Shown here in pieces: positions 1 to 16,128 of a stretch of 64,000 nucleotides of DNA; position 1 is the stretch's first letter, and the number at the start of each line of letters is the position of its first letter. The notes below the pieces were generated by a model, which had not been told where the DNA came from, ran no database searches, and saw only the letters and a list, made by a program, of their open reading frames with translations. This DNA is from Bacillota bacterium (GTDB taxonomy: Bacteria > Bacillota > Negativicutes > Sporomusales > Sporomusaceae), in the NCBI GenBank assembly GCA_023443285.1, contig JAEZVB010000128.1, positions 3,385 through 67,384 of the forward strand, in the 5' to 3' direction. The position numbers and the translations under genes are program-made.

Positions 1-171
1 AACGGCATGCTCGACATTGTTTTAGTCGCATTTCCTGAAATTACAGACACCGATGATATATTAGTCCAGGATGTTCCCGCTACCTATGAGTTAATTAAAA
101 ATTGGCTGGAATTCATTCTGGCCGGCAGGCTTACCGAACTCCCAAACGCAGAGACTCCGGCAGAGTCATAA
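1..171 (+). CDS. phage tail assembly chaperone (gpG-like), 5'-partial
   Basis: Frame-1 ORF is open from the window edge and stops at TAA 169-171. It lies directly upstream of the tape measure gene, the conserved gpG position. Call is by synteny only. Confidence 0.5.
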   Translation, partial: NGMLDIVLVAFPEITDTDDILVQDVPATYELIKNWLEFILAGRLTELPNAETPAES

Positions 172-353
172 ACACACTGTCGGAGTATGAACATTGCCTG
201 TATTGGTATGCATGTATGCATGAAAGCTATGGCTGGACGCGCGAGCAGATTGACGGTGAGGAATTTCAATACCTCATAGAACTCCTGGTAACTAAGGCAA
301 AATCCCAAGTGGAACCAGGCGAAAAAACAGCGTATGTTGATGAGGTGCTTTAG
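102..353 (+). CDS. -1 frame extension (gpT-like) of the tail assembly chaperone, probably made only as a G-T fusion
   Basis: ORF is in the -1 frame relative to 1..171 and overlaps its 3' end. It has no convincing RBS or ATG of its own (TTG in the ORF track). This is the classic G/GT layout before a tape measure gene. Confidence 0.5.
   Translation: MAGIHSGRQAYRTPKRRDSGRVINTLSEYEHCLYWYACMHESYGWTREQIDGEEFQYLIELLVTKAKSQVEPGEKTAYVDEVL
141..147 (+). promoter_or_regulatory. putative -1 programmed ribosomal frameshift site (slippery heptamer C CCA AAC)
   Basis: CCCAAAC is in X XXY YYZ phase of the frame-1 ORF. A -1 slip enters the frame of ORF 102..353, which ends 1 nt before the tape measure ATG. 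Confidence 0.5.
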
Positions 354-2864
354 ATGGCAAAAGGGACAAAAGTTGACGAGCTGTATTTGCAGTTATCCTT
401 GGATATGTCCGATTTGGAAAAAGGTGTGGCCGGTGCCGATAAAAAGGTTACTGACTTATCAAGAAAACTAAATACTGAGCTTAAATTTAATAAAATCAAA
501 GCTGATATTGAACTGGCCGGCATTGATAACGCTGAAAGAAGTATCAAAGGGCTTAAAGTGCAGTTTGAATCACTTACGCGTTCTGTTGAAATCCAGCAGA
601 AAAGAGTGGAAATCGCAGCCGCCCTACATTCCAAAGCCGTAAAAGAACTAGGTGAAAATGGTCAAGGTGTAAAGCTGTTAGAAAGCAGATACCTGCAAGA
701 GCAGAAAGCCCTCGCTTTACTGGAAAAGCAACTCAGACAGACCAATGAAGCCAGAAAAAACATAAATGTCAATGCAGGCAACAATGCTGGCACAGGAGTC
801 TTGGAACAATTAAAAACAGCAGCCTACGGCGCGCAGGCTAACCTCTCACTAGTTAATTCCAAGCTTCTGGTCTTGACGGCTCTGGCCGCAAGTGGCGGCG
901 GTTTGTTTAATTTAGTCAAAGGGGCAACCGAGGCTGGTGAATCGGTTTATCAATTGGCAACAAAGTTAAGTATTGGTGCGGCAGAAGCGGGAAGCCTCAA
1001 TAAAATTTTGCGCCTAACCGGCACAGACAGTCAGTCCTTTATAGCGACCATGCTTCGCATAGATAGAGCCGTAAGTACCGCAGGGAAAAACGGTAATGCC
1101 ACAACCCAAGCTCTCGAATATTTTGGTATATCCATCAAAGATACCTCCGGAAACCTGCTGCCGCTCAATCAGCAAATTGAGCAGTTAGCCAAAGGCTATA
1201 AGCTAGCAGCGGCTGCAGGCGAAGAAGAAGCCTTTGTTGCTGAAGTGTTGGGCGCGCGCGGAGCTGCTTTAATCCCTATGCTAAAAGAATATGAAGTAGC
1301 TGCCCAAGCTGCCAGCCGGATAAAAACCATCGGCATTGATCCAGCACAAGCGCATGAATTAGGCATTGAATTTAAAATCATTTCGGCAGAAGCCTCGCAA
1401 TTAAATAACGCTATGGGTAATGCCTTACTGCCAATTGCTAAAGAAATAGCGCCTGTCATAGCCGATGGATTTGGCGAGACTGTGCAATTCATAAAAGAGA
1501 ATAAAGACGCGATTGTCGATGTTACCGAGGTAGTTATTGAACTGGGTGGAACCGTCAAAGACGTATTGGTAACGGCTTTTGCACCTATGTTCGGCTTTGT
1601 TATTGACAATAAAGACAGTGTAATTGCTGCTTTGCAGCAAATCCGGGCAGAAATGCAGGTACTGCAAGAGAAGCCGTGGGCCATAGTATTGCCACCCATG
1701 TTGCAAGAAATCATTCTCGGCGATGAAGTTAAACAGAAAAAGATTCAGATGCAAGCGGCGGAAGCAGCAAAAAAGGCCGCTCGCGCCGCAGCAGAAGCCA
1801 CTGCCAAAGAAAATGAAAAAATACAAGCTGAGGAAGAAAAGCGCCTGCGTGAACAACTGCAAAACAGGCAAAGGGCTAATGCCGAAACCATAAAAGCGCA
1901 ACAAGAGCTTGACGCGGTATTGTATCGTTTAAATCATGATCGTGTACAAAATGAGCTCCATGACATCGACCTAAAGACCCAAGAAATGATTAAAGCTGGA
2001 GTGCAAGAACAGACTGCACTAGAACTAGCAGAAGCGAAAAAGGCGGAGATAACCAAGCGCTGTGCCGAAGAAATTCAAAAAGAGCGAGAAAGCTTAACTG
2101 ATAAAATCTTTGCGCAAAACGCATCAGCCTTGCAGATTCGCCTGCGGGAAATTGAACGCGAAAAACAAGCCTGGATTAAGAAAACCAATGATGAAGTTAG
2201 GGCCACGCAATGGGCCGAGCAAGAAAAAATACAGGCTGTAAAAAATGCTGCACTGGATGCCATTCGCAATCACCAGGAAGAACTCGAACTCATTAATAAA
2301 GTAATTGAGGCCAGAAAAAACCAAGCGGTCATTGAAGGAACAGACAAAAACGGCAACACGGTTGATTACTCTTCACAGTACCGGGCACGGGCAATTAAGT
2401 CTGCCATGGAAGAACTGCAGGCTTTTCAAAGAGAAGCGTTAAACCTGCCTAAATTATCCTTTGCAGTAACTCCGGAACACTTGGAACTATTGCAAAGTTC
2501 CATGCGCGCTGTAGAGGATTCGGTGTTACATGGTATGGTTACCGTAAATAACCAGGCCTTAAACGATATGACAGCCAATATGCCGCAAATCGGCCAAATA
2601 GCAGCTGATAATTATTTTTCGCCTTGGCAAAGTAAGGTTCAGCAATTATCAGGAGCGCTATCCAATATTGGTGGTGTTGGTATGGAAAGCACGCCAGGTG
2701 CGACCAACCCGGTCATAAAAAACTTTAGTATTTCCATTCCTGTTACAATCCAGGCAAACGTAAATTCCGATACGGACTTAAACCAACTGGCTGACAAGGT
2801 TGCTGCCAAGATCGAGAAACCGCTTGTGCAAGCCATACAGGGAGCGGATGAATATGGTGTTTAA
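354..2864 (+). CDS. phage tail tape measure protein
   Basis: 836-aa ORF with long A/E/K/Q-rich coiled-coil stretches and a hydrophobic central region. It follows the chaperone pair; size and position are typical of a tape measure protein. Confidence 0.9.
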   Translation: MAKGTKVDELYLQLSLDMSDLEKGVAGADKKVTDLSRKLNTELKFNKIKADIELAGIDNAERSIKGLKVQFESLTRSVEIQQKRVEIAAALHSKAVKELGENGQGVKLLESRYLQEQKALALLEKQLRQTNEARKNINVNAGNNAGTGVLEQLKTAAYGAQANLSLVNSKLLVLTALAASGGGLFNLVKGATEAGESVYQLATKLSIGAAEAGSLNKILRLTGTDSQSFIATMLRIDRAVSTAGKNGNATTQALEYFGISIKDTSGNLLPLNQQIEQLAKGYKLAAAAGEEEAFVAEVLGARGAALIPMLKEYEVAAQAASRIKTIGIDPAQAHELGIEFKIISAEASQLNNAMGNALLPIAKEIAPVIADGFGETVQFIKENKDAIVDVTEVVIELGGTVKDVLVTAFAPMFGFVIDNKDSVIAALQQIRAEMQVLQEKPWAIVLPPMLQEIILGDEVKQKKIQMQAAEAAKKAARAAAEATAKENEKIQAEEEKRLREQLQNRQRANAETIKAQQELDAVLYRLNHDRVQNELHDIDLKTQEMIKAGVQEQTALELAEAKKAEITKRCAEEIQKERESLTDKIFAQNASALQIRLREIEREKQAWIKKTNDEVRATQWAEQEKIQAVKNAALDAIRNHQEELELINKVIEARKNQAVIEGTDKNGNTVDYSSQYRARAIKSAMEELQAFQREALNLPKLSFAVTPEHLELLQSSMRAVEDSVLHGMVTVNNQALNDMTANMPQIGQIAADNYFSPWQSKVQQLSGALSNIGGVGMESTPGATNPVIKNFSISIPVTIQANVNSDTDLNQLADKVAAKIEKPLVQAIQGADEYGV

Positions 2865-3186
2865 AATTGGGACAGCAGTTGCCATGAAAACAGAATCCTT
2901 TGCAGTTGCCCCCGATGACCGACAAATCCTGATCAAAACCGTTGGCGGTGTAGTTGTGCAGGATAATGGCAGAATTCCGGATGGGGATGTAATCACAGTA
3001 ACGCTGAAATTCACGGCAGCGAATTGGGCGCTGGTTCAGGACTATTGGCATAAGAGAACCAAGGTAAAAGTAACTGATCATACGGGTGTGACATATTCAG
3101 ATTGCCGGATTCGTGTTACCGGCATCAAATACGTGGATAAGTTTCCTGGCAAATATGACATAACGTTAGAAATTTGGAGGGTATGA
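2848..3186 (+). CDS. hypothetical phage tail protein (about 112 aa)
   Basis: ATG at 2848/2854 overlaps the tape measure stop and is tightly packed in the late operon. No family recognised. Confidence 0.6.
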   Translation: MNMVFKIGTAVAMKTESFAVAPDDRQILIKTVGGVVVQDNGRIPDGDVITVTLKFTAANWALVQDYWHKRTKVKVTDHTGVTYSDCRIRVTGIKYVDKFPGKYDITLEIWRV

Positions 3187-3187
3187 C

Positions 3188-3574
3188 ATGGCATACATTC
3201 ATTTGTATAAAGGCACTGTAACTTCTGGCGGTACAGACGGCGCTTTATGCTCGGAAGGAGATATGAGTAGCCCTCTGTCAACCGCCAATATATTGAACAC
3301 CGGTGCTGAGTCGGGGGTAATTACGGCTGCACTCCGCTGCGACAGTGGCTATGCAACTAGCACAAGCACAGTACTAACGCCAAGCAGTGATAAATGGGCC
3401 TTATCTGCTGACGGAACAACGTGGGGTGCTTGGGGGGCAGCCCTTACAATCACGAGCATAATTACAGCCGTTAACACGCTTATCTATGTTAAAGCCAAAA
3501 GCGCTCCAGGCGAGTCGCCAATTGCAGATACTTCGGCAAAGATAACGATAACGACAACAACGGTGGCGGCATAA
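3188..3574 (+). CDS. hypothetical phage tail protein (128 aa, Thr/Ser/Ala rich)
   Basis: Start lies 2 nt after the previous stop, same strand and operon. No family recognised. Confidence 0.55.
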   Translation: MAYIHLYKGTVTSGGTDGALCSEGDMSSPLSTANILNTGAESGVITAALRCDSGYATSTSTVLTPSSDKWALSADGTTWGAWGAALTITSIITAVNTLIYVKAKSAPGESPIADTSAKITITTTTVAA

Positions 3575-3575
3575 C

Positions 3576-4205
3576 ATGGGCGCAGAAAGTATTAGCATTG
3601 ATACCCTAAGAAATGTTTTCTGCTCGGAAAACGTAAGTGTTGATACCGGCAGACATGTCATTTGTTCCGAAACAGTATCAGTTGATACAGCCAGAAAAAG
3701 AACCAGTAGTTTATTTGGCTGTACAACACTCTCCATTATCCTTGCGGCAAAATCACTCACTGACAAATTTGCGCTTACTACTTACCAGCCAGTTATTCTT
3801 GAACAACTCCTAATCGGTCATGTCAGGAGTTTTAATTTTGCTTTGAAAGTAAAGGAATTATTGATAACGGACGGATTATATTCTGTTACCGGGGTCTATG
3901 ATATTGATCATCTGCTAAGTAAGCCGCTGGCATATGATGCAAGTCTGAAAAAAGCAACAAGTACTGTTTACGCTATAGCAGCTGTACTGGGTAGTGCAGT
4001 AAACATAAGCATTGATGATTTTGCTGTTGATAACCAGAGTGGTGGCCGCCCAACCTGTAAGGAGGTTTTAAATAACCTATTTTCCTGGACAGACAAATTA
4101 CCACACAGGCAGATTAATGTGTTTGTGCGTAACGGAACGCTAACTATCTTACAGCGCGGCAAGGAAACAGGCACAGTTACAATTAAGCAGGAGCATCCGT
4201 ATTAA
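3576..4205 (+). pseudogene. N-terminal fragment of a phage tail/baseplate protein, truncated by the 4188..9097 inversion
   Basis: The native reading frame ends at 4187. The last 6 codons and the stop are read from the inverted endolysin sequence. The frame continues in phase with the minus-strand ORF open to 9097 once the block is re-inverted. Confidence 0.65.
3594..3700 (+). repeat. about 2.5 degenerate tandem copies of a 42-nt (14-aa) unit, S(I/V)DTxRxVxCSExV
   Basis: Units 3594-3635 and 3636-3677 align without gaps with roughly two thirds identity. A third partial unit starts at 3678. Confidence 0.6.
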
Positions 4206-4641
4206 CCAAAACATAAAAGCGGGATTCTTTATCTGGGTCACCATCGGAATAATCGGTTCTACCTGCTCTGTCTGGAAACTCGGCGGCAATTTGCCCATAG
4301 ATGCAGGTAGCCAGCCTGTCCCCTTCCGTCTGCCCCGGCGAGGTCCATATCTCATAACCTTCCGCACTCTCGTTTGCCGCGCTGTTGCAATGAAGAGAAA
4401 TAAAAATATCGGCACCCCAGTCATTTGCCAGAGTAGTCCGATAGATTAAATCATCTGTTTCTGCTTGTTCCCATTCGGTCCGGGTCAGTTTCACCTCATA
4501 CCCTATCGCAAGTAAATATTTTTCAACTAGCCGCGAAATCACCAGCGCAACATCCGCTTCCTGAAGGCCTGTTGTTCCATTTACTGCGCCAGGATCAATA
4601 TTTCGTCCCGCATGCCCCGGATCAATGCATACTTTTGTCAT
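4183..4641 (-). pseudogene. N-acetylmuramoyl-L-alanine amidase (Amidase_3) endolysin, N-terminal fragment
   Basis: Motifs CIDPGHAG..DPGA, EADVAL, TR and ADIFISLHCNS are present. The sequence stops at FYVLVNTDAP(A*), inside the conserved P-x-V-L/I-x-E strand. Confidence 0.85.
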
Positions 4642-5230
4642 CGCGTTTTTCCGCCTCTTGTGCTAGCGTCACTGAAAAATTAGAACCCGTAATTTTGAAT
4701 AAAAGCATGCAACAATACAGCTTTAACTGCGCTACTTTTGTATTACCCATTTCCTCGAAGTTTTCTAAAATACTAAATAACTCGGTCATAGCGATGTAGG
4801 CATATATTCCTCCGGCAATCGCCTTATTAAGTTGTGTCCCAGCAATCAGCATCTCCGGCAGTTTTCCTGTCAAACCAGCGAATATAATGAGGATTCCATA
4901 GATGAAAATCTTTTCTCCCCAACACTGTTTTAACGCTCTGCTCGACAAATATCCAGGCTTCCAGGCATAAAAAAAGCCGCATAGAAGTGCGGTTGCGGTT
5001 ATGGGCAGCAGGCCTTGGTCAAGCAAGTAACGTTTTGTAATACCAACCCATTTTGTGAGAGTGTCCAGGCAGACAAAAACCATAACAACTAACAGAATAA
5101 TTTCACTTCCCCCAAACAAAAAACAAATCAAAGAGGACATCCCTGCCACTGCTGTCTTGTAAGGCCAGCTGTCAGCAATTGTATCCCTGCTTCGCTCAAT
5201 CAAACTCCACAATTTGAGCATAATCTCCAA
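4622..5230 (-). CDS. phage holin (toxin-secretion/phage-lysis holin type)
   Basis: Multi-TM 202-aa protein with an ELFSILENFEEMG motif (E-x-x-S-I-x-EN). It overlaps the start of the amidase gene, forming a lysis cassette. Confidence 0.7.
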   Translation of the reverse strand: MEIMLKLWSLIERSRDTIADSWPYKTAVAGMSSLICFLFGGSEIILLVVMVFVCLDTLTKWVGITKRYLLDQGLLPITATALLCGFFYAWKPGYLSSRALKQCWGEKIFIYGILIIFAGLTGKLPEMLIAGTQLNKAIAGGIYAYIAMTELFSILENFEEMGNTKVAQLKLYCCMLLFKITGSNFSVTLAQEAEKRDDKSMH

Positions 5231-5262
5231 GCCCTCACCACCTTATTTATTTACCATTTCTT

Positions 5263-6336
5263 TCACAATGGCTCAGCACAACCGCGAAATCCGATTTCCC
5301 GACTCAGCATCATTGGGCTCGAACTCCAACTTGAATTTCGTGAACCACAACGAGAATTATCCACCCAAATACCACCCAGAACAACACGATTCGAATTCTT
5401 CCATGCTGTACCGCGTACACCGGTATCATTGCTATCATAAGCAGTTTCATAGGTTTCTGACGAATGATACGGACCACCCGCCTCTGCTCCCCATTGATAC
5501 TGTGCACCGCACATATCTTCACAACCAATATTAGATATCATTCTCCTTCCTGCAAAATCGCTATGCCCGCCGGTTGTGTTAGGGTCTGACTCGCTAGCAA
5601 TATTAGTACCCTGATTGCTGCCCAAACTAGCAGACATAAATTCACGTTGAGTAAGTAGATTCTTTTTAGACTTTGCCAGCCAATCCGTGCCTTTATACCA
5701 GTGAAAAGCAGGAGTAGAAGTGCCGTCAGCAATGACACCGTTGTAAATACTGACTAGTTGCGACTCGCTCACACTAGCCAAATAAACATCAATCCACTTA
5801 TTGGTGTTTGCATCATAAACCATACCCTCCGGTTGGCACACCGGTCTATGGATTAAGTCCCAGATACTAGCCGGCAGAATATCACCGGCGCTGTAATCAC
5901 TCAGCGTATGCCCAGAAATTATGCCAACAGCCGCACATAAACAATGAAAGCCTCCGATCTTGCGGCAATTACTAGCTTCATAGCCTATAGGAACTGTGCT
6001 ATTTGCAGACAATAAAAATAAAGGTGTTATCCCGGTTGCCGGCTGACAGGTATAGATATAAAAATCTTTGCCTGCCCGGTTTTCCGCTGCCGTAAAACTA
6101 GCCGTATCCCAGTTAGCTGCCTGAGAAATATCGATTTCTTGCTGTGTGGAAACTATATAGCCAGAAGAATTAACCTTTACGGTTAGCTGCTTGGGTGACA
6201 AAAGTTTGGTTTGCCCGCTTGCTTGCCAGGCTACGTCGCGCGCATAGTCAGCAGGCAGAGAAGCGATTACTGCCGCAATATCAATGCCGCCTGAATCACC
6301 ACCAGAGGTTTTTCCGATGAATCCACCAAACCCCAT
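5263..6336 (-). CDS. phage tail fibre / receptor-binding protein with a C-terminal C-type-lectin (FGE/sulfatase-modifying-factor-like) domain
   Basis: C-terminus is NRVVLGGIWVDNSRCGSRNSSWSSSPMMLSREIGFRGC, which resembles the R-GGSW...G.R...IGFR signature of CLec-fold tips. It is the last structural gene before the holin. Confidence 0.55.
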   Translation of the reverse strand: MGFGGFIGKTSGGDSGGIDIAAVIASLPADYARDVAWQASGQTKLLSPKQLTVKVNSSGYIVSTQQEIDISQAANWDTASFTAAENRAGKDFYIYTCQPATGITPLFLLSANSTVPIGYEASNCRKIGGFHCLCAAVGIISGHTLSDYSAGDILPASIWDLIHRPVCQPEGMVYDANTNKWIDVYLASVSESQLVSIYNGVIADGTSTPAFHWYKGTDWLAKSKKNLLTQREFMSASLGSNQGTNIASESDPNTTGGHSDFAGRRMISNIGCEDMCGAQYQWGAEAGGPYHSSETYETAYDSNDTGVRGTAWKNSNRVVLGGIWVDNSRCGSRNSSWSSSPMMLSREIGFRGCAEPL

Positions 6337-6602
6337 TATCTAACCACCACCTGTACTTCAGACGCCTGTGCGCCAATTATGCTGAGCATATTCCAAGGAG
6401 ACTTCGGCCTGAGTTCATAGGATTGACTCTCGGTAAGCTTCAAACAATTAACATCATTTAATAGAGCTGACTGGCGCCAACTAATAAAAATGTCCCCAGG
6501 GCCGTAGTTAACCAAATCGGCATGTTGCTGGGGACTGTCGTAACTAATGATGGTTTCGCTGTTTGGCACTAATACACATCGGGTAATTTCTTTCCCTTGC
6601 AC
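6336..6602 (-). CDS. hypothetical phage protein (88 aa)
   Basis: Start/stop overlap with the downstream gene at 6336; packed in the tail module. Confidence 0.5.
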   Translation of the reverse strand: MQGKEITRCVLVPNSETIISYDSPQQHADLVNYGPGDIFISWRQSALLNDVNCLKLTESQSYELRPKSPWNMLSIIGAQASEVQVVVR

Positions 6603-6615
6603 AGTTCTGACCTCC

Positions 6616-8025
6616 TTATCCCTTCCAATTATTAATCATAGAAGCAATTTGTTTTGCAAAACCAGGCCTAACAAATGTAACGCGCTTGTTGTAATGGCTT
6701 TCATTTTGGGTAAGAGCATACACTTCCTGGTACTCACCAGCTATTACTCTCCCTATACCGCGGCTATGCAAAAACCACAGTTCACCTTTTTGTTTAATAA
6801 TATCAAGCGGAACGTTATACCCTATTTCGCATAATGTACTGCCATCCGGGTTATGAACTACTCGTCCCACATTCTTTACTTCATTATAGTAATAGCCGCC
6901 AGGCAAATAATACGGGAAGTCTTGCTGATTGCTCGTCGATGTTGTTTGTATATTCGTAAACCGGTAGTAATAATTGGCGGCAGTCGAGCCATTTAGTTCT
7001 TCAAACGAATCGGCGGAAAACCAAGGACAGTTATCCTCAATAACCCAAGGATTTAAGCCATAGCCATGGCCATCTAGAGTATCTGACACCTCTGTATTTT
7101 GATTCATTCTTTTGGAAAAGCCGCCATTATACTGAAACTCTTCTTCATAGCCTTGTATCGCTCCGCCAGCAAGAAAACCATATTTTTTGCCCGTATCTGC
7201 CCGGTATGCATTTAGATATACGCTCGTTCTAACCTCGCCATCAGTATATCCGCTAAAAAACAGCTTCCCCTCAGGACTTACAGACAAACTTGATAACAAT
7301 ACAAGACTATCTAAGCTTGCTATCGCTTTATAGCCAATACCTGACTGAGTAATATAATTACCTTCAACGAGTCTAAGACCAGCGGAATACTTTCTTAATT
7401 CTAAAACCGCAGCATCTCTTGATATATCCAATAATCCTCCATACTCCTGCTGCAAGGACTCGTTTTTAAAAACTTGTATGGCTCCATTTGCACTGCTGCC
7501 AGACTGATTTGCTACAGGCGATTCAGAATAACTGCTTGCTTTCCCAAAAGCACTGATAAGATTGCCCTCTGCACTAACGCAAAAATCTATACTTTGTGCT
7601 GTTATTGGCAGGTTCAGCCACTTTCCCTTTACTATATCTAAGAATTTCATCTTGCCCTGCAAAGTTCGCATCATTAAATAGGCTGCATTTGACCCATACA
7701 CAAAAAACATCAAAATCACTTGTCCAGCACTCTGCATAATCTGGGTTAATTTTGTTTTATCAATGAGATAGCGGGCAGTTTTTCCTGTAGCATACACTTC
7801 TGTAACATACACATCTCCACCATATGTTCCAAACAGAATCATGCATTCATCTGCCTTCGGAATATAGGGTTGCACGTTTCTGACTGGTTCATGGCCAAAT
7901 ATTACCTTCGAATCAGTCCACACCCAGTCACCTACTTGGTGAGAAGCATTGCCGATTGCCCGCTTTCCGCCAGAAGAAGTATATATAATAGTGCCGGATA
8001 TACCAGTTATTTGTTCAAGCTTCAT
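6616..8025 (-). CDS. hypothetical phage tail/baseplate protein (469 aa)
   Basis: Long ORF in the tail module with a 4-nt overlap to the upstream gene. No family recognised. Confidence 0.6.
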   Translation of the reverse strand: MKLEQITGISGTIIYTSSGGKRAIGNASHQVGDWVWTDSKVIFGHEPVRNVQPYIPKADECMILFGTYGGDVYVTEVYATGKTARYLIDKTKLTQIMQSAGQVILMFFVYGSNAAYLMMRTLQGKMKFLDIVKGKWLNLPITAQSIDFCVSAEGNLISAFGKASSYSESPVANQSGSSANGAIQVFKNESLQQEYGGLLDISRDAAVLELRKYSAGLRLVEGNYITQSGIGYKAIASLDSLVLLSSLSVSPEGKLFFSGYTDGEVRTSVYLNAYRADTGKKYGFLAGGAIQGYEEEFQYNGGFSKRMNQNTEVSDTLDGHGYGLNPWVIEDNCPWFSADSFEELNGSTAANYYYRFTNIQTTSTSNQQDFPYYLPGGYYYNEVKNVGRVVHNPDGSTLCEIGYNVPLDIIKQKGELWFLHSRGIGRVIAGEYQEVYALTQNESHYNKRVTFVRPGFAKQIASMINNWKG

Positions 8026-8261
8026 CGGCCAACAATCACCGCTTTCGTGCCGGCATCATTCATGACTACATATACCCAATCACCTGTATTCATTGCCATA
8101 TCGATGGCTGCAGAATATGGATAACACCTACCGCCTATATGCACACCATCGTTGGTTATCTGTCCGCGTTTAACGCTATTTTGTGCCGCCTCGCGTTTCA
8201 ACCTGTCTTTTACAGCGCTCGTAACCGTACGACATAACTGTTCAACACTCACGCATACCAC
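8022..8261 (-). CDS. hypothetical phage protein (79 aa)
   Basis: Overlapping starts and stops with both neighbours in the tail module. Confidence 0.5.
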   Translation of the reverse strand: MVCVSVEQLCRTVTSAVKDRLKREAAQNSVKRGQITNDGVHIGGRCYPYSAAIDMAMNTGDWVYVVMNDAGTKAVIVGR

Positions 8262-9097
8262 CTCACTAATTCAACACGCTGGCTGAATTTCTCCGGTTCC
8301 TGAGTAATATTGTTGCTCTCCAAGTAGTATTCGTTGCCTCGCCAGATCACTCGCGACGTATAATCTAAAATTGTATCATCATACACTTCCATGCTGATGC
8401 GTTCCTCTATTTTGCCATCAAGCCAAACCAGTGCGTCGGCAATAGCTTGTAAGCTGGCAATATCAGTAACAGGGTATTCATCCATGAGACTTCGTAGGCG
8501 GGCAGGTATGGTATATATCACTACATTGCTTCCCGGAGTAGTAATAACAGGCGCATTTATAGAGTTTTCACGAATCGAATAAGGACTAGCTTTACTGGAA
8601 GGTGATCCTTGCCCGATTGTCGTGCTGACAGTTACACCATTTTCTTCAATGGTTGTCCCCCAATGTCCCTGGCCTAATGGATAATGGCGGGTGAGCCTTG
8701 TTCTTACAACGCTCTCGCTTTCGTATTCTTTTTCGGTTTCTGTCACAAGATCATTACCGGAAGTATCATAGGTCACTTCAATCTTACCGGTTTGGGTCAA
8801 AGTCGTTTTTTTCTTAATAAATGCCGGTGGCACTGATGCTGAGTATTCCCATGTTGTGACTTCGGTAAATCCATCAATATTATGAGTTTCTTGTGTAACT
8901 AAACCATTCGAATACGTCACGGACGAATCTCCAAACGTGAATATCCCGGACAGATAGGATTCGGAATCTCCCTCGCTATCATCTATGCCACTGGAACTAA
9001 TGATAGTACCTGGCACAGCATCGCCGTTTGTGTCCGTGGAGTCCTCTAATGTATTAATCCGCGCTAGGTGAATACTTGGCTCGCTATAATCCTTGTC
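8249..9097 (-). pseudogene. C-terminal part of the split tail/baseplate protein (partner of 3576..4187)
   Basis: The ORF track starts it at GTG 9016, but the frame stays open upstream to 9097 (..DKDYSEPSIHLARINTLEDSTDTNGDA-VPGT..). There is no RBS before 9016. Confidence 0.6.
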
Positions 9098-9225
9098 TCA
9101 TAGAGATGGCGTTTATTTCAAATGATGAGGAGGCTGCATTACTAGCAGACCCAATTTGGCAAGACCGATATGCAAGGGCGATTGCGCGAGGAGTGACTGA
9201 TTATTTTTTAGCGGTGGAGGGATGA
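9098..9225 (+). pseudogene. C-terminal fragment of the Amidase_3 endolysin
   Basis: Frame-1 translation (V)IEMAFISNDEEAALLADPIWQDRYARAIARGVTDYFLAVEG* matches the Amidase_3 C-terminal consensus (LvE.aFISNp.Ee.lL ... A.aia.Gi..Yf). It has no start codon of its own. Confidence 0.85.
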
Positions 9226-9228
9226 GGT

Positions 9229-9858
9229 ATGCTCCAGGTGTTCCAAACGTGGATAACTGCCTTTAAGCAAAACAAGTGGCTGATGGTGCTTGCTGTTTCC
9301 TTCCTATTAATATGCGCAATGCTTTTCTGGTTTTGGCAGCGTACACAGCAAGCGGAAGAAAAGTATCGGCAGGCGGTGGTGCTGCAGCAGGAACAATTGG
9401 AACAGGCGCAGGAACTTGGCAAAGTCCTTCATATCTCACAGATGAACGCTAGGGAACTGCAGGCGGCTTATGATGCACTGAAAGCTAAGCCGCCTGTTGC
9501 CAGTTTTTCCGTAAACGCGCCATCGCTAGTGGTTGCGGCTGAGCAGGTGGCGGAGAGAATTAATAAACAGGATACTACTCTGCCGACTGCCGCACTGGAA
9601 AAAACAGACCGGACGGCGGTGGTCAAAAACGATAACGAATATAAAGTGGATGTGCTGAAAATTAATCTGGACAAAACTTGGGAACTTTCCGCAGGGATAG
9701 GAAGTCACCGCGGTGATACCTATATTCCGGTTGGGGTGCAGAGAAACTATGCTGCGAATAAGGCCGTGGCAGCGGAAGTGCATCTGGTGCTGGAAGATTT
9801 GGCGAAGGGAAAAATAAAGACCTCCGGCTGGGAGATCAAGCATGTGTGGCGGTTTTGA
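9229..9858 (+). CDS. membrane-anchored coiled-coil protein downstream of the endolysin (possible spanin-like lysis accessory)
   Basis: RBS GGTGGAGGG, with the ATG 3 nt after the amidase stop. It has an N-terminal TM segment (WLMVLAVSFLLICAMLFWFW) followed by a Q/E-rich helix. Function is inferred from position only. Confidence 0.55.
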   Translation: MLQVFQTWITAFKQNKWLMVLAVSFLLICAMLFWFWQRTQQAEEKYRQAVVLQQEQLEQAQELGKVLHISQMNARELQAAYDALKAKPPVASFSVNAPSLVVAAEQVAERINKQDTTLPTAALEKTDRTAVVKNDNEYKVDVLKINLDKTWELSAGIGSHRGDTYIPVGVQRNYAANKAVAAEVHLVLEDLAKGKIKTSGWEIKHVWRF

Positions 9859-10130
9859 CCGGTTTATTTTTGTATATGAGGTTTTTAGAGAATTGACAAG
9901 CATGGTCGTACAATTATATTTGCTGAAGTATTTGTAGGGATTTAGTCACACTAGTTAAGCTGTCGTCTCGTGAGGTATCGACACAGATTGTGGTAAAGCG
10001 GACCATGATCCTTGTCAGCTTTTGCACCTTTGATGAAGATGTGCTATTCTGAGTTTGGGATATATTGTAAAGTGTGATTTTGAGTTGATATAATTCCAGA
10101 ACAGCAATTCCTGAGAGGTGAAGTAGTGAC

Positions 10131-11789
10131 ATGCTAACAGTTGAACAGTACATTTCCCAAATGAAGAAAAAGGAGAAACTTGACGAGTTTGACTTTAAGA
10201 ATCATGCGGAAAACATGGCCGCCGTGATGAAGTGTGTAGTGGAATACTTCAACACGTATCTAAACCCTGAGGAATATGATTACGAGGCGATAAAACTCGA
10301 GCAGTCGGCGGCAAAGGTCGAAAAAGAAATTGCTGATACGTTACCCCTTAGTAAAGACTTTATTATCGAGTACTATAAAAAGTATAAATCCCGAATTGAC
10401 AGAATGCTAAAATCGCATTTAAAAGGCTATGAATATATGGAACTGTTTTATAGTCGAGTTGACTTTGAAGATGTGGTAAACAGGTTTTGTGAAGACCGAA
10501 AAATGCAGGATACTGGGTTAGCCGAACACAAGGAAGAGCTTATCCTGTTAGCTCAAGAGCTAAAGGAACGTGCAACAGAGAAGCCGTCTCGCACCGGATA
10601 TAAGTATTTGGACGAAGCCTTGTTTTCTTGGATAAAGGATACATATGCGAATTTCAAGGTAAACCTGGTTGGCTTCGTCGGTGAAATTGCTTATGAGTAT
10701 TACGAAAAGTACGTAGAAGGCATCTACGATAGGAGCACCGAGCAGCATTACCATATTAATCGGTACAATCACCGATATAACAGCAATCCTTTCGGGATCG
10801 ATAGAATATATAAAGACAATTGCCATAGGCCGTTCATTGAAGGTTGCAAAGGTGAACTGGAAATGCTGATCATGTACGAATGGGTACACAGCTGGGTCGA
10901 AGATCCCGAGTATTGGCCGGAATATGTGAATCTTTGTGTCAACACTGGACGGGTTAACATCGTCCGCAATATGAACATTTTGCTTCCCGCAATCAATAAG
11001 GAGATTGGCTATCCGGAGGACATCAAGAGTTCGCTCGTGTATGTGGAAACGACTACCGGGGCTTTGAAGAGCGACCCTGACGGACCGTATATTTTACGTC
11101 TTACCTATGACAAGGAAAATGATCTTATCTGGAAAGACGACGGACAACTAGCCCACGTAATAGCCAACTTGCAGGAAACCTTTGCAGCGTACGGTCCACC
11201 ATGTGCTTTGGAACTGTACTCGCCTCTTCGATCCCCAACATATAACGAAAAAGAGTTTTTTGTTCGGTACAATCAGCTGGAGAAAAAACTAAAAAAATAC
11301 GCGAATATGGCTATTGCGCTAGTTAACGGACCGCAAAGACACAAAGCAAAACTGAGCTACTTGATGCAAACAACCGAGGATATAATCAAGATAAGGACGC
11401 TGGCCAAAGAAATGAAGTTTCGGCTTAAGATATCTCTAGACATCTCAAAGCTAATAACGAATAAAAACAATCACAGCCAATTTGAACAAGACTTCAATCA
11501 GCTAAGCGAGATGCGCCAATCGATCATTGGGGTGCACTTGGCCAACAGGTTCCCCAGTAGTAGTATCATTGATAGGATTTATAAGGACGACAAGGTGTAT
11601 CTGAATCAATACGAATACCCTAGATTATCGAATTATCTTGGGTCTATTTCGGCTCTTTTCAACGACAACCAGCGCCGCTATTTCGTACCAGAAGAAATTA
11701 AAAACCCAGAAGAACTCGAGGATTTGACAGACAACCTGCTAAGAGCCGGCTTTTCATTCATCGAATGGAAGGACGAACAACAACCATGA
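10131..11789 (+). CDS. hypothetical protein A (552 aa), no recognisable family
   Basis: Long ORF with RBS GAGAGGTGAAG. It carries an internal duplicated IDRIYKD heptapeptide (nt 10797-10817 and 11568-11588). No Walker A or nuclease motif is visible. Confidence 0.75.
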   Translation: MLTVEQYISQMKKKEKLDEFDFKNHAENMAAVMKCVVEYFNTYLNPEEYDYEAIKLEQSAAKVEKEIADTLPLSKDFIIEYYKKYKSRIDRMLKSHLKGYEYMELFYSRVDFEDVVNRFCEDRKMQDTGLAEHKEELILLAQELKERATEKPSRTGYKYLDEALFSWIKDTYANFKVNLVGFVGEIAYEYYEKYVEGIYDRSTEQHYHINRYNHRYNSNPFGIDRIYKDNCHRPFIEGCKGELEMLIMYEWVHSWVEDPEYWPEYVNLCVNTGRVNIVRNMNILLPAINKEIGYPEDIKSSLVYVETTTGALKSDPDGPYILRLTYDKENDLIWKDDGQLAHVIANLQETFAAYGPPCALELYSPLRSPTYNEKEFFVRYNQLEKKLKKYANMAIALVNGPQRHKAKLSYLMQTTEDIIKIRTLAKEMKFRLKISLDISKLITNKNNHSQFEQDFNQLSEMRQSIIGVHLANRFPSSSIIDRIYKDDKVYLNQYEYPRLSNYLGSISALFNDNQRRYFVPEEIKNPEELEDLTDNLLRAGFSFIEWKDEQQP

Positions 11790-13105
11790 ATACCGAAGAC
11801 GAAAGAACAAAGCTGTATAACGAAGTTTGGAGTGAGCCGGTGACTACCGTGGCAGAGCGTTACGGGATTTCCGACAACGGTCTGCGCAAACGCTGCATCA
11901 AGCTGCAGATTCCTCTGCCTCCGATCGGCTATTGGGCTAAATTGAAGGCCGGTGCCAAGGTGCCGAAGCCCAAATTGCCGGTACTGAAAGTTAAGGAGGA
12001 GACCATTGTTTTAAAGAATGTGAAAAACGAGCATGAAATGGAACTCATCGATTTTGGTGGGCAATCAACAGAAGAGTTGAAAAAGCTCGACGGACTCGAC
12101 GTGTTTACACCTCGTTCCCGAGAGGCATTCGCAAAGTGGTGCGGGAAGATCCATGTTTCCAAAAAAGGCGACTCATTTCATCCCCTGATCCTTGAATATC
12201 AAAAGGAGATTGAATACCGGAAGGTGCGTGACAAGGAACACCAGTTTCGTGATATGTTTCAGTTTAGGGATGTGACATACTTTCCTAAAGTAAAATACCG
12301 TGCTAATCAGGTGGTCTTGCCGATTAGTGTATCCGACAAGCAGAGCAATCGGGCCTGCCGGATCGTCGATACGCTGATAAAAGCTGTAGAAGAGCTAAAC
12401 GGTAAGGTTAAGCTCGGAAGTCCGCATTATAGCCAGCGAGAAGCGACAGACTGTGTTTTTATTACTTTATTTAAGGACTCTTTTTCCTTTCAGGTGAACG
12501 AAACGATGGCCAAACGGCGGGCTGTTATCGCCGCTATGCCGCCCGAAAACAGGACTCGCGAATTCAAGCCAATGTATGAGAAAGTGTTTACCGGCAAGCT
12601 GGAACTTGAACTCAAGCGAACTTCTGATTGCTGGGAAAAAGACAAGCTTGAGCAGGTCTTAACCCTTACTGATTCGGCTGAGAAATCTATAGAAGAGCAA
12701 TTGGGCGAGGCATTTCAATGGATGGTTAAAACTATCCAGGAGGCGAAAATCGCCTGGACCATACAGACCAGGGAAGAGGAAATAAGGGCGAGGGAACGAG
12801 AACGTCAGCGAACACTTGAGGAAGAAAAACAGAAAAAGTTGCAGGCGATCCTGGACATGGAGAAACGCCAGAAGCAGTTGGTCGAGAACATCGAGCAGCA
12901 GATGACCGGCTGGTTTAAAGCCCAGAAACTCCGACAATATGCCGATGAGATTGAGGCCTATGCAAAACAGGTTGTGGACCCCGATGAAAAAGAATCGCTG
13001 GACAGATATGTAAAATTGGTCAGAAGAAAGGCGGAAACAAGTGATCCGATTACCGAAATTGTCCAGGAGATTAAGGCAATAGGGGTAAAGACAGAGTTAT
13101 CTTAA
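11786..13105 (+). CDS. hypothetical protein B (439 aa): N-terminal HTH-like module plus long charged coiled coil
   Basis: ATGA start/stop overlap with gene A at 11786-11789. N-terminus is LYNEVWSEPVTTVAERYGISDNGLRKRCIKLQIPLPPIGYWAKLKAG. The C-terminal third is E/K/R/Q-rich (REEEIRARERERQRTLEEEKQKK..). Confidence 0.75.
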   Translation: MNTEDERTKLYNEVWSEPVTTVAERYGISDNGLRKRCIKLQIPLPPIGYWAKLKAGAKVPKPKLPVLKVKEETIVLKNVKNEHEMELIDFGGQSTEELKKLDGLDVFTPRSREAFAKWCGKIHVSKKGDSFHPLILEYQKEIEYRKVRDKEHQFRDMFQFRDVTYFPKVKYRANQVVLPISVSDKQSNRACRIVDTLIKAVEELNGKVKLGSPHYSQREATDCVFITLFKDSFSFQVNETMAKRRAVIAAMPPENRTREFKPMYEKVFTGKLELELKRTSDCWEKDKLEQVLTLTDSAEKSIEEQLGEAFQWMVKTIQEAKIAWTIQTREEEIRARERERQRTLEEEKQKKLQAILDMEKRQKQLVENIEQQMTGWFKAQKLRQYADEIEAYAKQVVDPDEKESLDRYVKLVRRKAETSDPITEIVQEIKAIGVKTELS

Positions 13106-13199
13106 GCAAGCAGAAATCCTCCGCCATGTATTTTTATAAATTAATTAAACGTATAATGCAAATTTATTCATGTATAAACTGTATAAATGAACCGAAAAA

Positions 13200-13240
13200 A
13201 GCCAGGAGGCCCGTAAGTCGCGCGGCTCCTGGCTTTTGTT
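13200..13240 (+). terminator. rho-independent terminator of the A-B operon
   Basis: 9-bp stem AGCCAGGAG / CTCCTGGCT followed by TTTTGTTG. Confidence 0.7.
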
Positions 13241-13426
13241 GTTTACACAATGGCTTTTATCGGACAGATATTGCTATTTTAGGATTAATATTAAATTTTT
13301 TCTATAATAATAGAGGAATTTGGAAGAGAAATGCGAATTAAATATTGTTTAAAATGGCAGTAAGAGTCAGATTTGAGCTAGTCTTACACGAGGAAACAAG
13401 AAAGATAACCTACTGTGAGGTGCATA

Positions 13427-14554
13427 ATGAACCCGTATTTCAGGCTAATATTACTGTATTTATTACCACCGATGGTTTTGTTATTAATAAACTTATATAT
13501 TTCTAATAGTCAATCAGAATGGCTTATTATTAAAGCTTTAAAGTATCATTTGTTTGAAACAAATGTTATAGTTGTCTTGACAATAGTATGGCTAGTTTTC
13601 GTTTGCTTTCAAGATTTTACAAAGTATTTACAAAATGAAGCGGAGAAAAAACAACAAGAACTGAAGGAGATTATAAAAGAAAAGAATGTCCTTCTAGCTT
13701 CGAAGGCCGGCGCATTAATCGAGAAATATAGCGATTTATACCAATATCAAGCTAAGGAAGCAATTGGGCAAGTACTAAAAAAGTTTACGTTAAATAATGA
13801 AATAATACATTCTGCTCAACTGTATAAATACTCAAAAAAACTTTTTGATGATTATGCAGTCGTTAAAGTTGACTATGTAAACGGCTATGTCTCGGAAGAT
13901 GTAGATATCAACGCGATGATCCAAAGTTACTATAAACTACCTACTGAAGTTTATAAAGAAGTTAATGAAATACTCGAGATTAAGAAGAAATTAGATACCC
14001 TTTTACTTGGTAATGCCAAAAGTGTAGACGGTTTGATGACGGAAGCTTTAATTGAAGCACAAATTCAACAAGAACTACAAAATAAGACGCTAGCGTTTAT
14101 TCGGAAATATAAGAGCTCTATTGATAATAAATCGTTAGACGGATTAACAGAGCTCGATGCAATTATGTTATCGCTGTTTGAGTTGGTTTCAGAAATTTTG
14201 CTCATCAATCCTCAGCAAAGCGTGGATATGTGGGAACTTGAAATTTTTGACCATAGTAGAACTGAGGTCTTAAGAGGGTTCAAACGGGTTGGGATTCTGG
14301 CTGGAATTCTCAAAATTAACGAATATATTTTTCGGAATGAAGGGAAGAGTAACAAGAGAGGTCGAATATATATTACAAGATGCTTTGAGATTAACAATCA
14401 GAAATACATCGTCCTTCTTTCAATATTACCAACGGTTGTTACTTATCCTAAGTGGCAAGCCCATATTACGGGCCTTACTGGGGAACTTATTAGTAGCTTG
14501 CTTGACGATTCCAACATAGTATATAATAAAGAAGAGGAGGATGTGGAACTATGA
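13427..14554 (+). CDS. hypothetical 2-TM membrane protein C (375 aa)
   Basis: RBS GTGAGG 6 nt before the ATG. It has two N-terminal hydrophobic helices (FRLILLYLLPPMVLLLINLYI; VIVVLTIVWLVFVCF), then a K/E-rich helix and a soluble domain of about 270 aa. Codon usage is markedly AT-rich compared with its neighbours. Confidence 0.7.
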   Translation: MNPYFRLILLYLLPPMVLLLINLYISNSQSEWLIIKALKYHLFETNVIVVLTIVWLVFVCFQDFTKYLQNEAEKKQQELKEIIKEKNVLLASKAGALIEKYSDLYQYQAKEAIGQVLKKFTLNNEIIHSAQLYKYSKKLFDDYAVVKVDYVNGYVSEDVDINAMIQSYYKLPTEVYKEVNEILEIKKKLDTLLLGNAKSVDGLMTEALIEAQIQQELQNKTLAFIRKYKSSIDNKSLDGLTELDAIMLSLFELVSEILLINPQQSVDMWELEIFDHSRTEVLRGFKRVGILAGILKINEYIFRNEGKSNKRGRIYITRCFEINNQKYIVLLSILPTVVTYPKWQAHITGLTGELISSLLDDSNIVYNKEEEDVEL

Positions 14555-14721
14555 CGAGTACAGCTGTATGTGTTGCTAAAAAAACCGATGTAATCGAACT
14601 GCTAAAGAGTGTTGGTATTACCGCTAGAAAGCTAGACCCATCTGAAGCACTATCTAAGAGTTGGGTTATCCCATCTAATGATAGAAGGGGTATGATTAAG
14701 ATAAAATTCAAAGAGAAATAA
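14551..14721 (+). CDS. small hypothetical protein D (56 aa), translationally coupled to C
   Basis: ATGA overlap at 14551-14554. The ORF (MTSTAVCVAKKTDVIELLKSVGITARKLDPSEALSKSWVIPSNDRRGMIKIKFKEK) ends 6 nt before a terminator. It falls below the ORF-track size cutoff. Confidence 0.5.
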   Translation: MTSTAVCVAKKTDVIELLKSVGITARKLDPSEALSKSWVIPSNDRRGMIKIKFKEK

Positions 14722-14727
14722 TAATTG

Positions 14728-14752
14728 GGCTGCCAGATATGGCAGTTTTTTC
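14728..14752 (+). terminator. rho-independent terminator of the C-D operon
   Basis: Stem CTGCCA / TGGCAG with loop GATA, followed by TTTTTTC. Confidence 0.7.
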
Positions 14753-15351
14753 TTTATCACACGTGATGAATTACGCGATACCCTTTTCTCAAAGGGGCTA
14801 AAATTTTTCGCAAAATCCTATTTCGCGTATTAGTATCGTCTTTCTATCCAAACACAGTGCGTTTAGGCGAACATAACAACCGCTGGTTTCTTTCCACCGA
14901 ATATCCGCCCCACATGCGTATGGTAAATGTGACAATATAAAAAATTAGGGCAATCTGGGGGACGGCTACAATTCAATCGTATTCCGGGCGGCTATCGTGA
15001 TGATGAATGTTAGAATTATAAAGCAGACATCATGTTGTGGTCTGCAGTGATTTTTTGCATGAATAGCTGTCTTTTAGCGATTTGCCGATAGGGGTTTCAA
15101 TTTTAACGATTTCTAGTGGTGCAATGCACCGAGAGGTGCAAGGTGGTGCATTCTATCCATAAGTAGTTACTGTGCCAGAAGGAAATGTTGAGTTTTCGCA
15201 GGTTTGCGGGAACTCTTTTTGTTGTTTGAAAAGCTGGAAGGCAATCTAAAATGATTTATTTATTAATTTTTGCGTAATTTAAAAGGATTTATCATATTGG
15301 TACGGTAAATATATATATATAAATATTGTTATTTTTTGGAGGAACATATAC

Positions 15352-16128
15352 ATGACATTATTGTTAGAGCAAACACGGGAAATAAATCAGCTATTACAAA
15401 AATCTGAAAAGGTGGATTACGGTAAGGTTGCTGATCTTCTCAGCAGGTGCATAGAAGCTAATGTTTATCTGATTGGTAAAGATGGAGCCATTCTCGGATA
15501 TGCCTTGAAAGCTGGCTTTGAATGCGAAAGCCTGCTAGAAGGCGTATTAGAGAAAGGACGTTTCCCGGAAGAGTACATGAAAACGTTGAAAAGTGTTCGT
15601 GAGACTGCTTGTAATATTCATCTTAATAACAAGTGCTGTGTATTTGATGAAAATTTAAAAATATGTCCTATTGGTGAGAAATACAGCATTATAGTTCCTG
15701 TTGTTGGGGTTGGTAAACGTCTGGGGTCTTTATTGATTGCCAAATTTCATGTAGAATTTACTGAAGATGAGTTAGTATTGGCTGAATATGGTGCTACCAT
15801 GCTAGGCATGGATATGCTGCGAGGTAGGATGGATAGGCTAGAAGATGATACTCGCAAAAGAACTACAGTACGGGTCGCTTTAAGTACGCTTTCTTATTCT
15901 GAGTTTGAAGCGGCAACACATATTTTGAATGAACTTGACGGCGACGAGGGTTTGCTTGTGGCCAGCAAAATTGCTGATCGTGTAGGAATAACCAGGTCGG
16001 TTATTGTCAATGCTTTGAGAAAACTTGAGAGTGCTGGCGTGATTGAGTCTAAATCGCTTGGTATGAAAGGCACATATATAAGAATTATCAATGAGTATCT
16101 GCTTGAAGAGTTTAATAAGAAAAAGTAG
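15352..16128 (+). CDS. codY: GTP-sensing pleiotropic transcriptional repressor CodY
   Basis: 258 aa with an N-terminal GAF-like region and the diagnostic C-terminal wHTH ASKIADRVGITRSVIVNALRKLESAGVIESKSLGMKGTYI. Confidence 0.95.
   Translation: MTLLLEQTREINQLLQKSEKVDYGKVADLLSRCIEANVYLIGKDGAILGYALKAGFECESLLEGVLEKGRFPEEYMKTLKSVRETACNIHLNNKCCVFDENLKICPIGEKYSIIVPVVGVGKRLGSLLIAKFHVEFTEDELVLAEYGATMLGMDMLRGRMDRLEDDTRKRTTVRVALSTLSYSEFEAATHILNELDGDEGLLVASKIADRVGITRSVIVNALRKLESAGVIESKSLGMKGTYIRIINEYLLEEFNKKK

Follow-up and report, generated by a model that had tools for sequence, protein, structure and literature searches.

Among described anti-phage systems, the recruitment of a TIM-barrel domain of phosphodiesterase type into a multi-gene system is represented by QatD of QatABCD (PMC13434339). 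QatD, a TIM barrel within an anti-phage system, is the nearest analogy to one product of the gene pair analysed here, A–B, which is carried by a prophage on a 64,000-nucleotide stretch (the window) of contig JAEZVB010000128.1 from a Bacillota bacterium of the Sporomusaceae (GCA_023443285.1, positions 3,385 to 67,384). The analogy does not extend further, as QatD belongs to the TatD barrel superfamily (HxH), is catalytically active and acts in a four-gene system together with a QueC-like protein and an ATPase, and it has no homology to A or B.

In its fold, A is closest to endonuclease IV (Endo IV) and the other apurinic/apyrimidinic (AP) endonucleases of family 2, such as E. coli Nfo and the African swine fever virus AP endonuclease. 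These proteins give the best fold match for residues ~283–545 of A in PDB and viral structure libraries, and the H/E/D residues of stand-alone relatives of the A barrel follow the Endo IV register. A differs from them by an extra helical N-terminal domain of 270 aa, by its partner gene and by the loss of most metal ligands. Protein B shares a long antiparallel coiled-coil hairpin and residence in defence islands with LmuB of Lamassu and with SMC/Rad50-like proteins, but it is far shorter and has no ATPase head, Walker A/B motifs, hinge or zinc hook. LmuB is the only match to B in PADLOC-DB v2.0 (2023), the set of defence models used here, which returns none to A; both this match (E 0.11) and that to Rad50 in Foldseek (probability 0.14) are weak and represent coiled-coil noise. 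With no Walker A motif and no ABC head in the model, an SMC/Rad50/LmuB-type ATPase was ruled out for B. The location of the pair recalls the morons and hotspots at prophage ends (P2/P4 hotspots, mycobacteriophage defence genes), in that an autonomous cassette running from promoter to terminator follows lysis genes and an integrase. It differs from them in that the A–B families are new and that the cassette also turns up outside prophages, carried by plasmids, Tn7-like elements and chromosomal islands.

We describe A–B as a candidate two-gene defence-island system of undescribed families, one of many such candidates. The pair falls within no PADLOC v2 system, and in the literature we found neither a paper that names its accessions nor an Endo IV-like barrel in a defence system. 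Together with the searches of Pfam, PHROGs and NCBIfam, this bears out a first-pass annotation, made from the sequence alone, that had called the pair undescribed.

A and B form a single transcription unit

Genes A and B are read as one transcription unit with coupled translation. Gene A (10131–11789, forward strand) encodes a cytosolic protein of 552 aa that falls in no described family, and gene B (11786–13105, forward strand) encodes a protein of 439 aa, giving a pair of 991 aa in total on ~3 kb. The two open reading frames (ORFs) lie as first annotated and are joined by an ATGA overlap between the start codon of B (ATG, 11786–11788) and the stop codon of A (TGA, 11787–11789). A longer ORF for B from the ATG at 11765 is possible; homologues and public gene calls start at 11786. 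A promoter-like site on the forward strand (10065–10094; TTGTAA, 18 nt, TGnTATAAT with an extended −10) ends 37 nt upstream of A and scores 10 of 12 consensus positions, a consensus match alone. It is followed by the ribosome-binding site of A (GAGAGGTGAAG, ~10114–10124, forward strand). Strong ribosome-binding sites and −10-like boxes recur in the upstream regions of homologues, and no common operator is visible upstream of A across 47 loci. Downstream of B, an intrinsic terminator on the forward strand (13193–13245), consisting of a hairpin and a U-run, closes the unit. The proposal that the pair has a terminator of its own is supported by the folding energy of the segment 13193–13241 (−27.2 kcal/mol, z −3.5), which was equalled by 1 of 200 shuffled sequences.

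Searches against the profiles of Pfam, PHROGs, NCBIfam and PADLOC gave nothing above any curated threshold for either protein, in agreement with the initial failure to assign A or B to a family, and placed neither of them in a known phage structural or replication family. Both proteins lack transmembrane segments and Walker A motifs, the latter having already been reported as absent from A.

Comparison of homologues shows that the pair is inherited as a unit. In protein searches A has 156 relatives and B has 115, every one unnamed or hypothetical, and relatives of the two carry adjacent locus tags in five NCBI genomes. We located 51 A–B loci in a scan of one genome per species and 10 viral contigs with the pair in a scan of IMG/VR. 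B is always encoded downstream of A on the same strand, and in 42 of 44 loci the distance from the stop codon of A to the start codon of B lies between −20 and +10 nt. The identities between pairs of A proteins track those between the corresponding B proteins (Mantel r 0.93, a value reached by 0 of 2000 permutations), and B evolves faster than A (mean identity 32% versus 46%). Clustering of ORFs across loci revealed no conserved flanking gene; only A and B are conserved. The co-occurrence and linkage that the first-pass annotation had proposed to examine are therefore present, and constant co-inheritance and co-divergence make it very probable that A and B act as a complex.

The hosts are nearly all Bacillota, including Negativicutes, Clostridia, Paenibacillus, Cohnella, Oceanobacillus, Virgibacillus and Enterococcus. 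Examples of the pair are WP_169284724.1 and WP_169284723.1 from Paenibacillus or Cohnella and WP_164958356.1 and WP_164958355.1 from Clostridium estertheticum. Separately, two metagenome-assembled genomes labelled 'Ignavibacteriales bacterium' and 'uncultured archaeon' (our loci L006 and L017) contain A–B at 56–59% identity, as a result either of mis-binning of Bacillota DNA or of a transfer beyond the phylum. In Paenibacillus genomes with two copies, DNA similarity of 88–90% spans only the interval from ~55 nt upstream of A to the end of B, indicating that the cassette itself is the unit of exchange. We also considered that A–B might be a transposon. Intragenomic copies are 82–97% identical and this identity is confined to the cassette, yet no terminal repeats or transposase were found, and the possibility was rejected.

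Domain architecture of A and B

The AlphaFold (AF2) model of A (pLDDT 88, pTM 0.79) consists of a helical N-terminal domain and a (beta/alpha)8 TIM barrel. The N-terminal domain (aa 1–270; 10131–10940, forward strand) also occurs as separate proteins of ~278 aa and is characterized by the family motifs NxYxxRY...NPF (aa 210–221), GELEM (aa 241–245) and DxEYWPEY (aa 258–265). The C-terminal barrel (aa 283–545; 10977–11765, forward strand) is Endo IV/xylose-isomerase-like, with most of its presumed metal ligands replaced. Its top Foldseek matches in PDB and BFVD are AP endonucleases of family 2, Endo IV and xylose-isomerase-like barrels, with E-values of 1e-4 to 1e-3, a TM score of ~0.45–0.5 on the target and ~13% identity for Endo IV-type structures; xylose and rhamnose isomerases and tagatose and allulose epimerases reach similar scores. 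No sequence match of A to Endo IV or PF01261 was found in Pfam or NCBIfam, and profiles of A and of the stand-alone barrels match no PDB sequence at E-values up to 10. A thus resembles the AP_endonuc_2 (PF01261) superfamily in fold and departs from it in sequence profile and metal site.

An exhaustive profile search with A yielded 388 relatives and showed that both halves of the protein occur independently. The stand-alone barrels (~285–310 aa) are encoded without a partner on 11 phage contigs from IMG/VR (our loci L061–L071), and further copies (5776–6702 in L056 and 4216–5136 in L058, each counted in the coordinates of its locus) include one beside a Schlafen-like helicase on a single contig and one on the Thermococcus barophilus plasmid pTBMP1 beside a DUF2357 protein. 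The family matches nothing in Pfam, NCBIfam or PDB sequences, and it aligns with the barrel of A at an hhalign probability of 99.9 (E 8e-32). Its invariant or nearly invariant residues are H43, E103/H105, E141, D180, H218, H233 and E270, and its motifs (xHP, IEN, D, GxHL, H) appear in Endo IV register. In a local hhalign comparison with E. coli Nfo, whose ligand numbering is consistent, five of these residues fall in register with H109, E145, D179, H216 and H231; the match is not significant alone (E 0.37) and is local only, as global hhalign of Nfo to the barrel family failed. Encoded on phages, the stand-alone barrels may represent an unstudied phage or plasmid AP-endonuclease, a possibility suggested by sequence motifs that bears on the newly described glycosylase-based defences.

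The register provided by the stand-alone family allowed us to follow the metal site in 38 sequences of the A family. H43 of the stand-alone barrels corresponds to R323 in A, H105 to a hydrophobic residue at position 363 (L/M/F), E141 to V/I398, R143 to G400, H233 to a variable loop and E270 to E521, which is E in 20/38 sequences and K in 11/38. In Nfo, the trinuclear metal site is formed by nine ligands, H69, H109, E145, D179, H182, H216, D229, H231 and E261. Of these, H69 is matched in A by R, H109 by a hydrophobic residue and E145 by V/I; a variable loop takes the place of the D229/H231 region, and the equivalent of E261 is retained in 20/38. Across the entire site, A has R323, L/M/F363, V/I398, a preserved D437, S/P439, H469 in 31/38, the variable loop and E521, so that the nine-residue site of Endo IV is absent. 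The residues that are invariant in the A family are E361, N399, D437, D512 and R516, with H469 in 31/38 sequences. From these alignments, two of the three metal sites appear to have lost their ligands, and the barrel appears to be a degenerate descendant of an Endo IV-like enzyme that has retained a strongly conserved pocket. Neither its sequence nor its active site places A in the Endo IV family.

The heptapeptide IDRIYKD, which had been noticed twice in A, is indeed present at aa 223 and aa 480, while the exact duplication is found in this protein only. The family motif NPFxI(D/E)xIYxxN accounts for the first copy, and the second falls in a loop that varies between members and is modelled at pLDDT <50. 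A functional repeat was ruled out because the duplicate is not conserved in the family.

The model of B (pLDDT 82) contains four parts: an HTH (helix-turn-helix)-like module, a helical segment, an alpha/beta domain and a coiled-coil hairpin. The HTH-like module (aa 1–55; 11786–11950, forward strand; helices 3–16, 19–26 and 30–39; motif IPxPPxGYW) matches weakly the C-terminus of a PHROG HNH family. The conserved core (12068–12670, forward strand) comprises helices at aa 95–151 and the alpha/beta domain at aa 184–295, with the motif VSxxxxNRAxRIxDTLIKA, and is followed by the antiparallel coiled-coil hairpin (aa 302–432; 12689–13081, forward strand; helices 302–367, 369–395, 399–419 and 422–432). 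The model therefore supports the HTH-like N-terminus and the long coiled coil recognized in the first reading. The former is an optional addition, missing in about half of the orthologues, namely in those of Paenibacillus (~352 aa) and of Tissierella, Clostridium, Oceanobacillus and Enterococcus (312–342 aa), and we regard it as accessory for this reason rather than as part of the core. Foldseek gave no PDB fold match for B (best E 0.37), its profile matches no PDB sequence, and database matches to the coiled coil represent coiled-coil noise only.

Genomic setting and likely role of the pair

A–B is cargo of prophages, plasmids and integrative elements, where it lies among known defence systems and beside integrases, in line with the prophage or defence-island setting first suggested for it. 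The systems that flank it are Wadjet, Gabija, Lamassu, restriction-modification (R-M), PARIS-like, Abi, DarT and Schlafen-like systems, together with serine or tyrosine recombinases. Pfam families detected among the four nearest neighbours include large serine recombinases (9), JetD, TnsD/TniQ, SacI, N6_Mtase, DNA_methylase, ResIII, the Schlafen AlbA_2 domain (SLFN_AlbA_2), the OLD TOPRIM domain with AAA_15/21, DarT, Abi_2, PIN_8, TcpC and type IV secretion system proteins. For the same neighbours, PADLOC identifies JetC/JetD, a type I methyltransferase (MTase_I), LmuB, GajA, MADS mad3/8, AriA, AbiLi and PDC-M22B. Wadjet genes occur within 10 kb of the pair in 6 genomes and on the Cohnella herbarum plasmid. 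In its RefSeq annotation, this plasmid shows Wadjet, RES, an AAA ATPase with a helicase, a transposase, A–B and a trio of tyrosine recombinases, and two places on it match A. Paenibacillus mellifer and P. provencensis each contain two diverged A–B copies that are separated by ~20 kb and close to a Wadjet locus (in P. provencensis, jetC lies between the copies), and in both species a tyrosine-recombinase trio follows the downstream copy (two-copy and Cohnella loci: L007/L009, L010/L031 and L095). An obligate Wadjet (JetABCD) component was rejected, as jet genes are absent from the large majority of A–B loci, including that of the window.

In prophages, lysis genes are followed by 1–3 serine integrases and A–B, and the sole phage record with A–B has the same layout. 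Among the viral contigs, A follows 1–3 serine recombinases in 8 of 10 and an amidase gene stands just before in 4, with A–B located 1–10 kb from the contig end. The stand-alone N-domain, a family of ~278 aa that is widespread in Bacillota and has no Pfam entry, likewise adjoins defence genes, with Gabija and GmrSD as neighbours in Clostridium sporogenes and Lamassu in Priestia megaterium; of the other genes of this family, one lies beside RecT and RadC and two beside excisionase-like HTH_17 genes (the stand-alone genes being L081, 9001–9840; L083, 9001–9831; L057, 4114–4947; and L072, 8001–8846).

Such neighbours are what guilt by association classically looks for in a candidate defence or exclusion module. 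Taken together, the autonomy of the cassette, the probable complex of its products, its mobility, its presence in defence islands and at prophage ends and the degenerate nuclease fold are best accommodated by a conflict module. With confidence somewhat short of even, we read A–B as a mobile-element conflict module of Bacillota whose likeliest role would be to defend against, or exclude, incoming DNA of phages or plasmids. We infer its function and mechanism as follows. (i) A would supply recognition through its barrel, which may descend from an Endo IV-like metallo-phosphodiesterase family still found as stand-alone phage or plasmid genes and which is fused to a helical domain that appears to circulate alone in defence islands as well. 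(ii) With metal ligands lost and the polar pocket (E361, N399, D437, D512, R516 and mostly H469) invariant, the barrel could act as a sensor that binds DNA or a ligand, or as an enzyme re-tooled around a single metal, rather than as an AP endonuclease. (iii) B would be an oligomerising coiled-coil scaffold, or the effector, which the added HTH may tether to DNA in some lineages. Should the pair be defensive, the degenerate Endo IV-like barrel would point to the sensing of damaged or modified DNA and not to its cleavage. A more specific version is possible though doubtful, namely a new anti-phage or anti-plasmid immune system in which a catalytically retired Endo IV-type barrel senses lesions, abasic sites or modified bases and signals via the coiled-coil partner; in that case, the stand-alone N-domain (~278 aa) and barrel (~300 aa) proteins would add two more undescribed families of conflict genes carried by Bacillota mobile elements and phages.

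Were A–B confirmed as a system of defence or exclusion, it would add one made of three protein modules without a Pfam family and, as far as our literature searches show, would be the first defence system built on an Endo IV-like barrel, albeit a degenerate one. Otherwise it remains a conserved pair of co-evolving cargo genes of Bacillota mobile elements that is annotated only as 'hypothetical'. As a small autonomous pair with versions in Paenibacillus and Clostridium, it would be straightforward to test in Bacillus subtilis.

Several observations weigh against a defensive role. The main weakness is that no nuclease, NTPase, NADase or membrane effector is recognizable in A or B, and the sole enzyme-like domain of the pair looks degenerate. 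The absence of a PADLOC v2 model fits novelty and lends no support to defence. The neighbour scans covered the two nearest genes on each side of A–B and provide raw tallies, uncorrected for genomic background, and adjacency to integrases fits any cargo or element-maintenance function equally well. A–B is found in 1 of 50,697 phage records and in 10 of 2.9 million viral contigs. The stand-alone N-domain gene beside RecT and RadC also counts here, as early regions of the RecT/RadC type house anti-defence and DNA-handling genes as well.

The linkage to recombinases raises the alternative that A–B serves the element itself by processing DNA in integration, excision, replication or repair, either as an accessory or directionality factor of a serine recombinase or as a complex that handles DNA ends or lesions. 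The position of A directly downstream of 1–3 serine recombinases in most viral contigs and in about 6–9 of 47 genome loci, the DNA-repair fold of Endo IV in the barrel, the HTH on B in many members and the single N-domain gene beside RecT and RadC are all compatible with such a role. Roughly three quarters of the genome loci have no serine recombinase within 10 kb; the pair stands instead beside Wadjet, Gabija or R-M genes, in Tn7-like cargo or by tyrosine-recombinase trios. As most loci have no serine recombinase, a function in the element is weakened and we consider it unlikely. The Endo IV ligand set is largely lost, the HTH is dispensable, and the known directionality factors of serine integrases are small single proteins. 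In the window, no serine recombinase is found among the ORFs scanned at 1–16 kb. An obligate accessory or directionality factor was rejected, given the linkage in 8 of 10 viral contigs but in only ~9 of 47 genome loci.

The phage-borne stand-alone barrels bear on a second alternative, in which A–B provides counter-defence or damage tolerance, for example by binding or shielding abasic or modified sites that glycosylase-type restriction by the host creates, or by acting as an anti-restriction factor. On the 11 phage contigs that encode barrels with Endo IV-like ligands, repair of AP sites would make sense, and of the stand-alone N-domain genes, the one beside RecT and RadC is in a setting that resembles the early region of a mobile element and two lie beside HTH_17 genes. 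Anti-defence genes are usually small, early-expressed phage genes, for which residence in defence islands is atypical, whereas A–B is large, has its own promoter and terminator, and is found in chromosomal and plasmid defence islands beside host systems such as Wadjet. In addition, the catalytic metal sites have been lost from the A barrel, leaving counter-defence quite improbable.

The tight operon with coupled translation, strict co-inheritance, location on mobile elements and the faster divergence of B would also be expected of an addiction or abortive-infection toxin–antitoxin pair, in which one partner neutralises the other and the element is stabilised. In size, both A and B greatly exceed classical type II partners, the searches revealed in them neither a known toxin fold nor the DNA-binding architecture of an antitoxin, and the upstream regions have no conserved operator, so that we give this explanation little credence. 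That A is a metabolic or lysogenic-conversion enzyme, with a one-metal barrel like that of sugar or sugar-phosphate isomerases and epimerases and B as its regulator or scaffold, is very improbable: isomerases and epimerases score like Endo IV in Foldseek and an E-D-H-(E)-like subset is partly kept (E361, D437, H469 and E521, the last two at the frequencies given above), but the fourth ligand is K in 11 of the 38 members, the stand-alone barrels follow the Endo IV motif register and not the isomerase pattern, and no loci show a conserved link to transporter or sugar genes.

The recurrent gene c3 and the rearranged prophage

A third gene, c3, recurs at part of the loci. Its products (234–383 aa, motif S.I.P.LSGF) are confined to the clade with short B proteins without the HTH, where the gene abuts or overlaps the end of B and in prophages sometimes follows A–B; in locus L085 it lies upstream of A (c3 genes: L038, 5265–6416; L039, 6875–7969; L053, 2781–3884; L089–L093; and L077, 6222–6971). 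In Clostridium cellulovorans, a c3-like gene precedes a distant B-like gene and is adjoined by TerB, BrxC/BrxD-like and helicase genes, and other distant B-like genes are found in defence-like neighbourhoods with different partners. Possibly c3 acts as an optional third component, or it is a module common to another system. A conserved third gene of the unit was rejected, as c3 alone recurs and the other downstream genes are unrelated.

In the window, PHROGs identify a tape-measure protein (354–2864, forward strand) and a tail gene of the phrog_24491 family that is split into a forward part (3576–4202) and a reverse part (8252–9016). Cut at the ends of the inversion described below, the two parts span 3576–4187 and 8252–9091. 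The holin and the N-terminal part of the endolysin are encoded on the reverse strand (4186–5230), with codons 1–158 of the Amidase_3 endolysin at 4186–4641, while its C-terminal part (CLIEMAFISNDEE...) is encoded on the forward strand at ~9092–9225. Re-inverting the segment 4188–9091 restores a tail frame of 492 codons and an endolysin frame of 202 codons together, and the restored amidase aligns unbroken to the amidases of other loci. Simultaneous restoration of both frames shows that the prophage contains a 4.9-kb inversion (4188–9091) that breaks its lysis and tail genes, and the prophage is defective through this inversion. The same inverted arrangement is present in two other public assemblies. 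The breakpoints have no inverted repeats, and the joints match over at most 2–3 nt.

The ancestral order of genes was tail fibre, holin, endolysin, membrane protein, A and B. The initial description of the pair as lying just past the lysis cassette is accurate for this ancestral arrangement. Today, only the C-terminal endolysin fragment and the membrane protein (9229–9858, forward strand) directly precede A, the holin and the N-terminal part of the endolysin having been moved away from A by the inversion. Searches for relatives of this prophage with its tape-measure, membrane and fibre proteins gave no match in the phage collection or in IMG/VR.

The inverted segment also contains a tail protein gene (5263–6336, reverse strand) in whose product we detected an 'Mtd second domain' (PF21916, E 4e-20), a fold shared with the target of the Bordetella phage diversity-generating retroelement. 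We rejected such a retroelement at this gene: no pair of template and variable repeats (direct repeats ≤33 nt, window positions 1–16000) and no reverse transcriptase among the scanned ORFs were detected. With neither element within 16 kb, the Mtd-like gene looks like that of a plain receptor-binding protein.

Beyond the terminator of A–B, and before the host gene codY at 15352, an ORF of 379 aa with two N-terminal membrane helices is encoded on the forward strand (13415–14554). Pfam, PHROGs and PADLOC return no match to it, and it is not a conserved neighbour of A–B at other loci. The GC content of this stretch is 32%, compared with 41–47% for A–B, and the ORF may be separate cargo.

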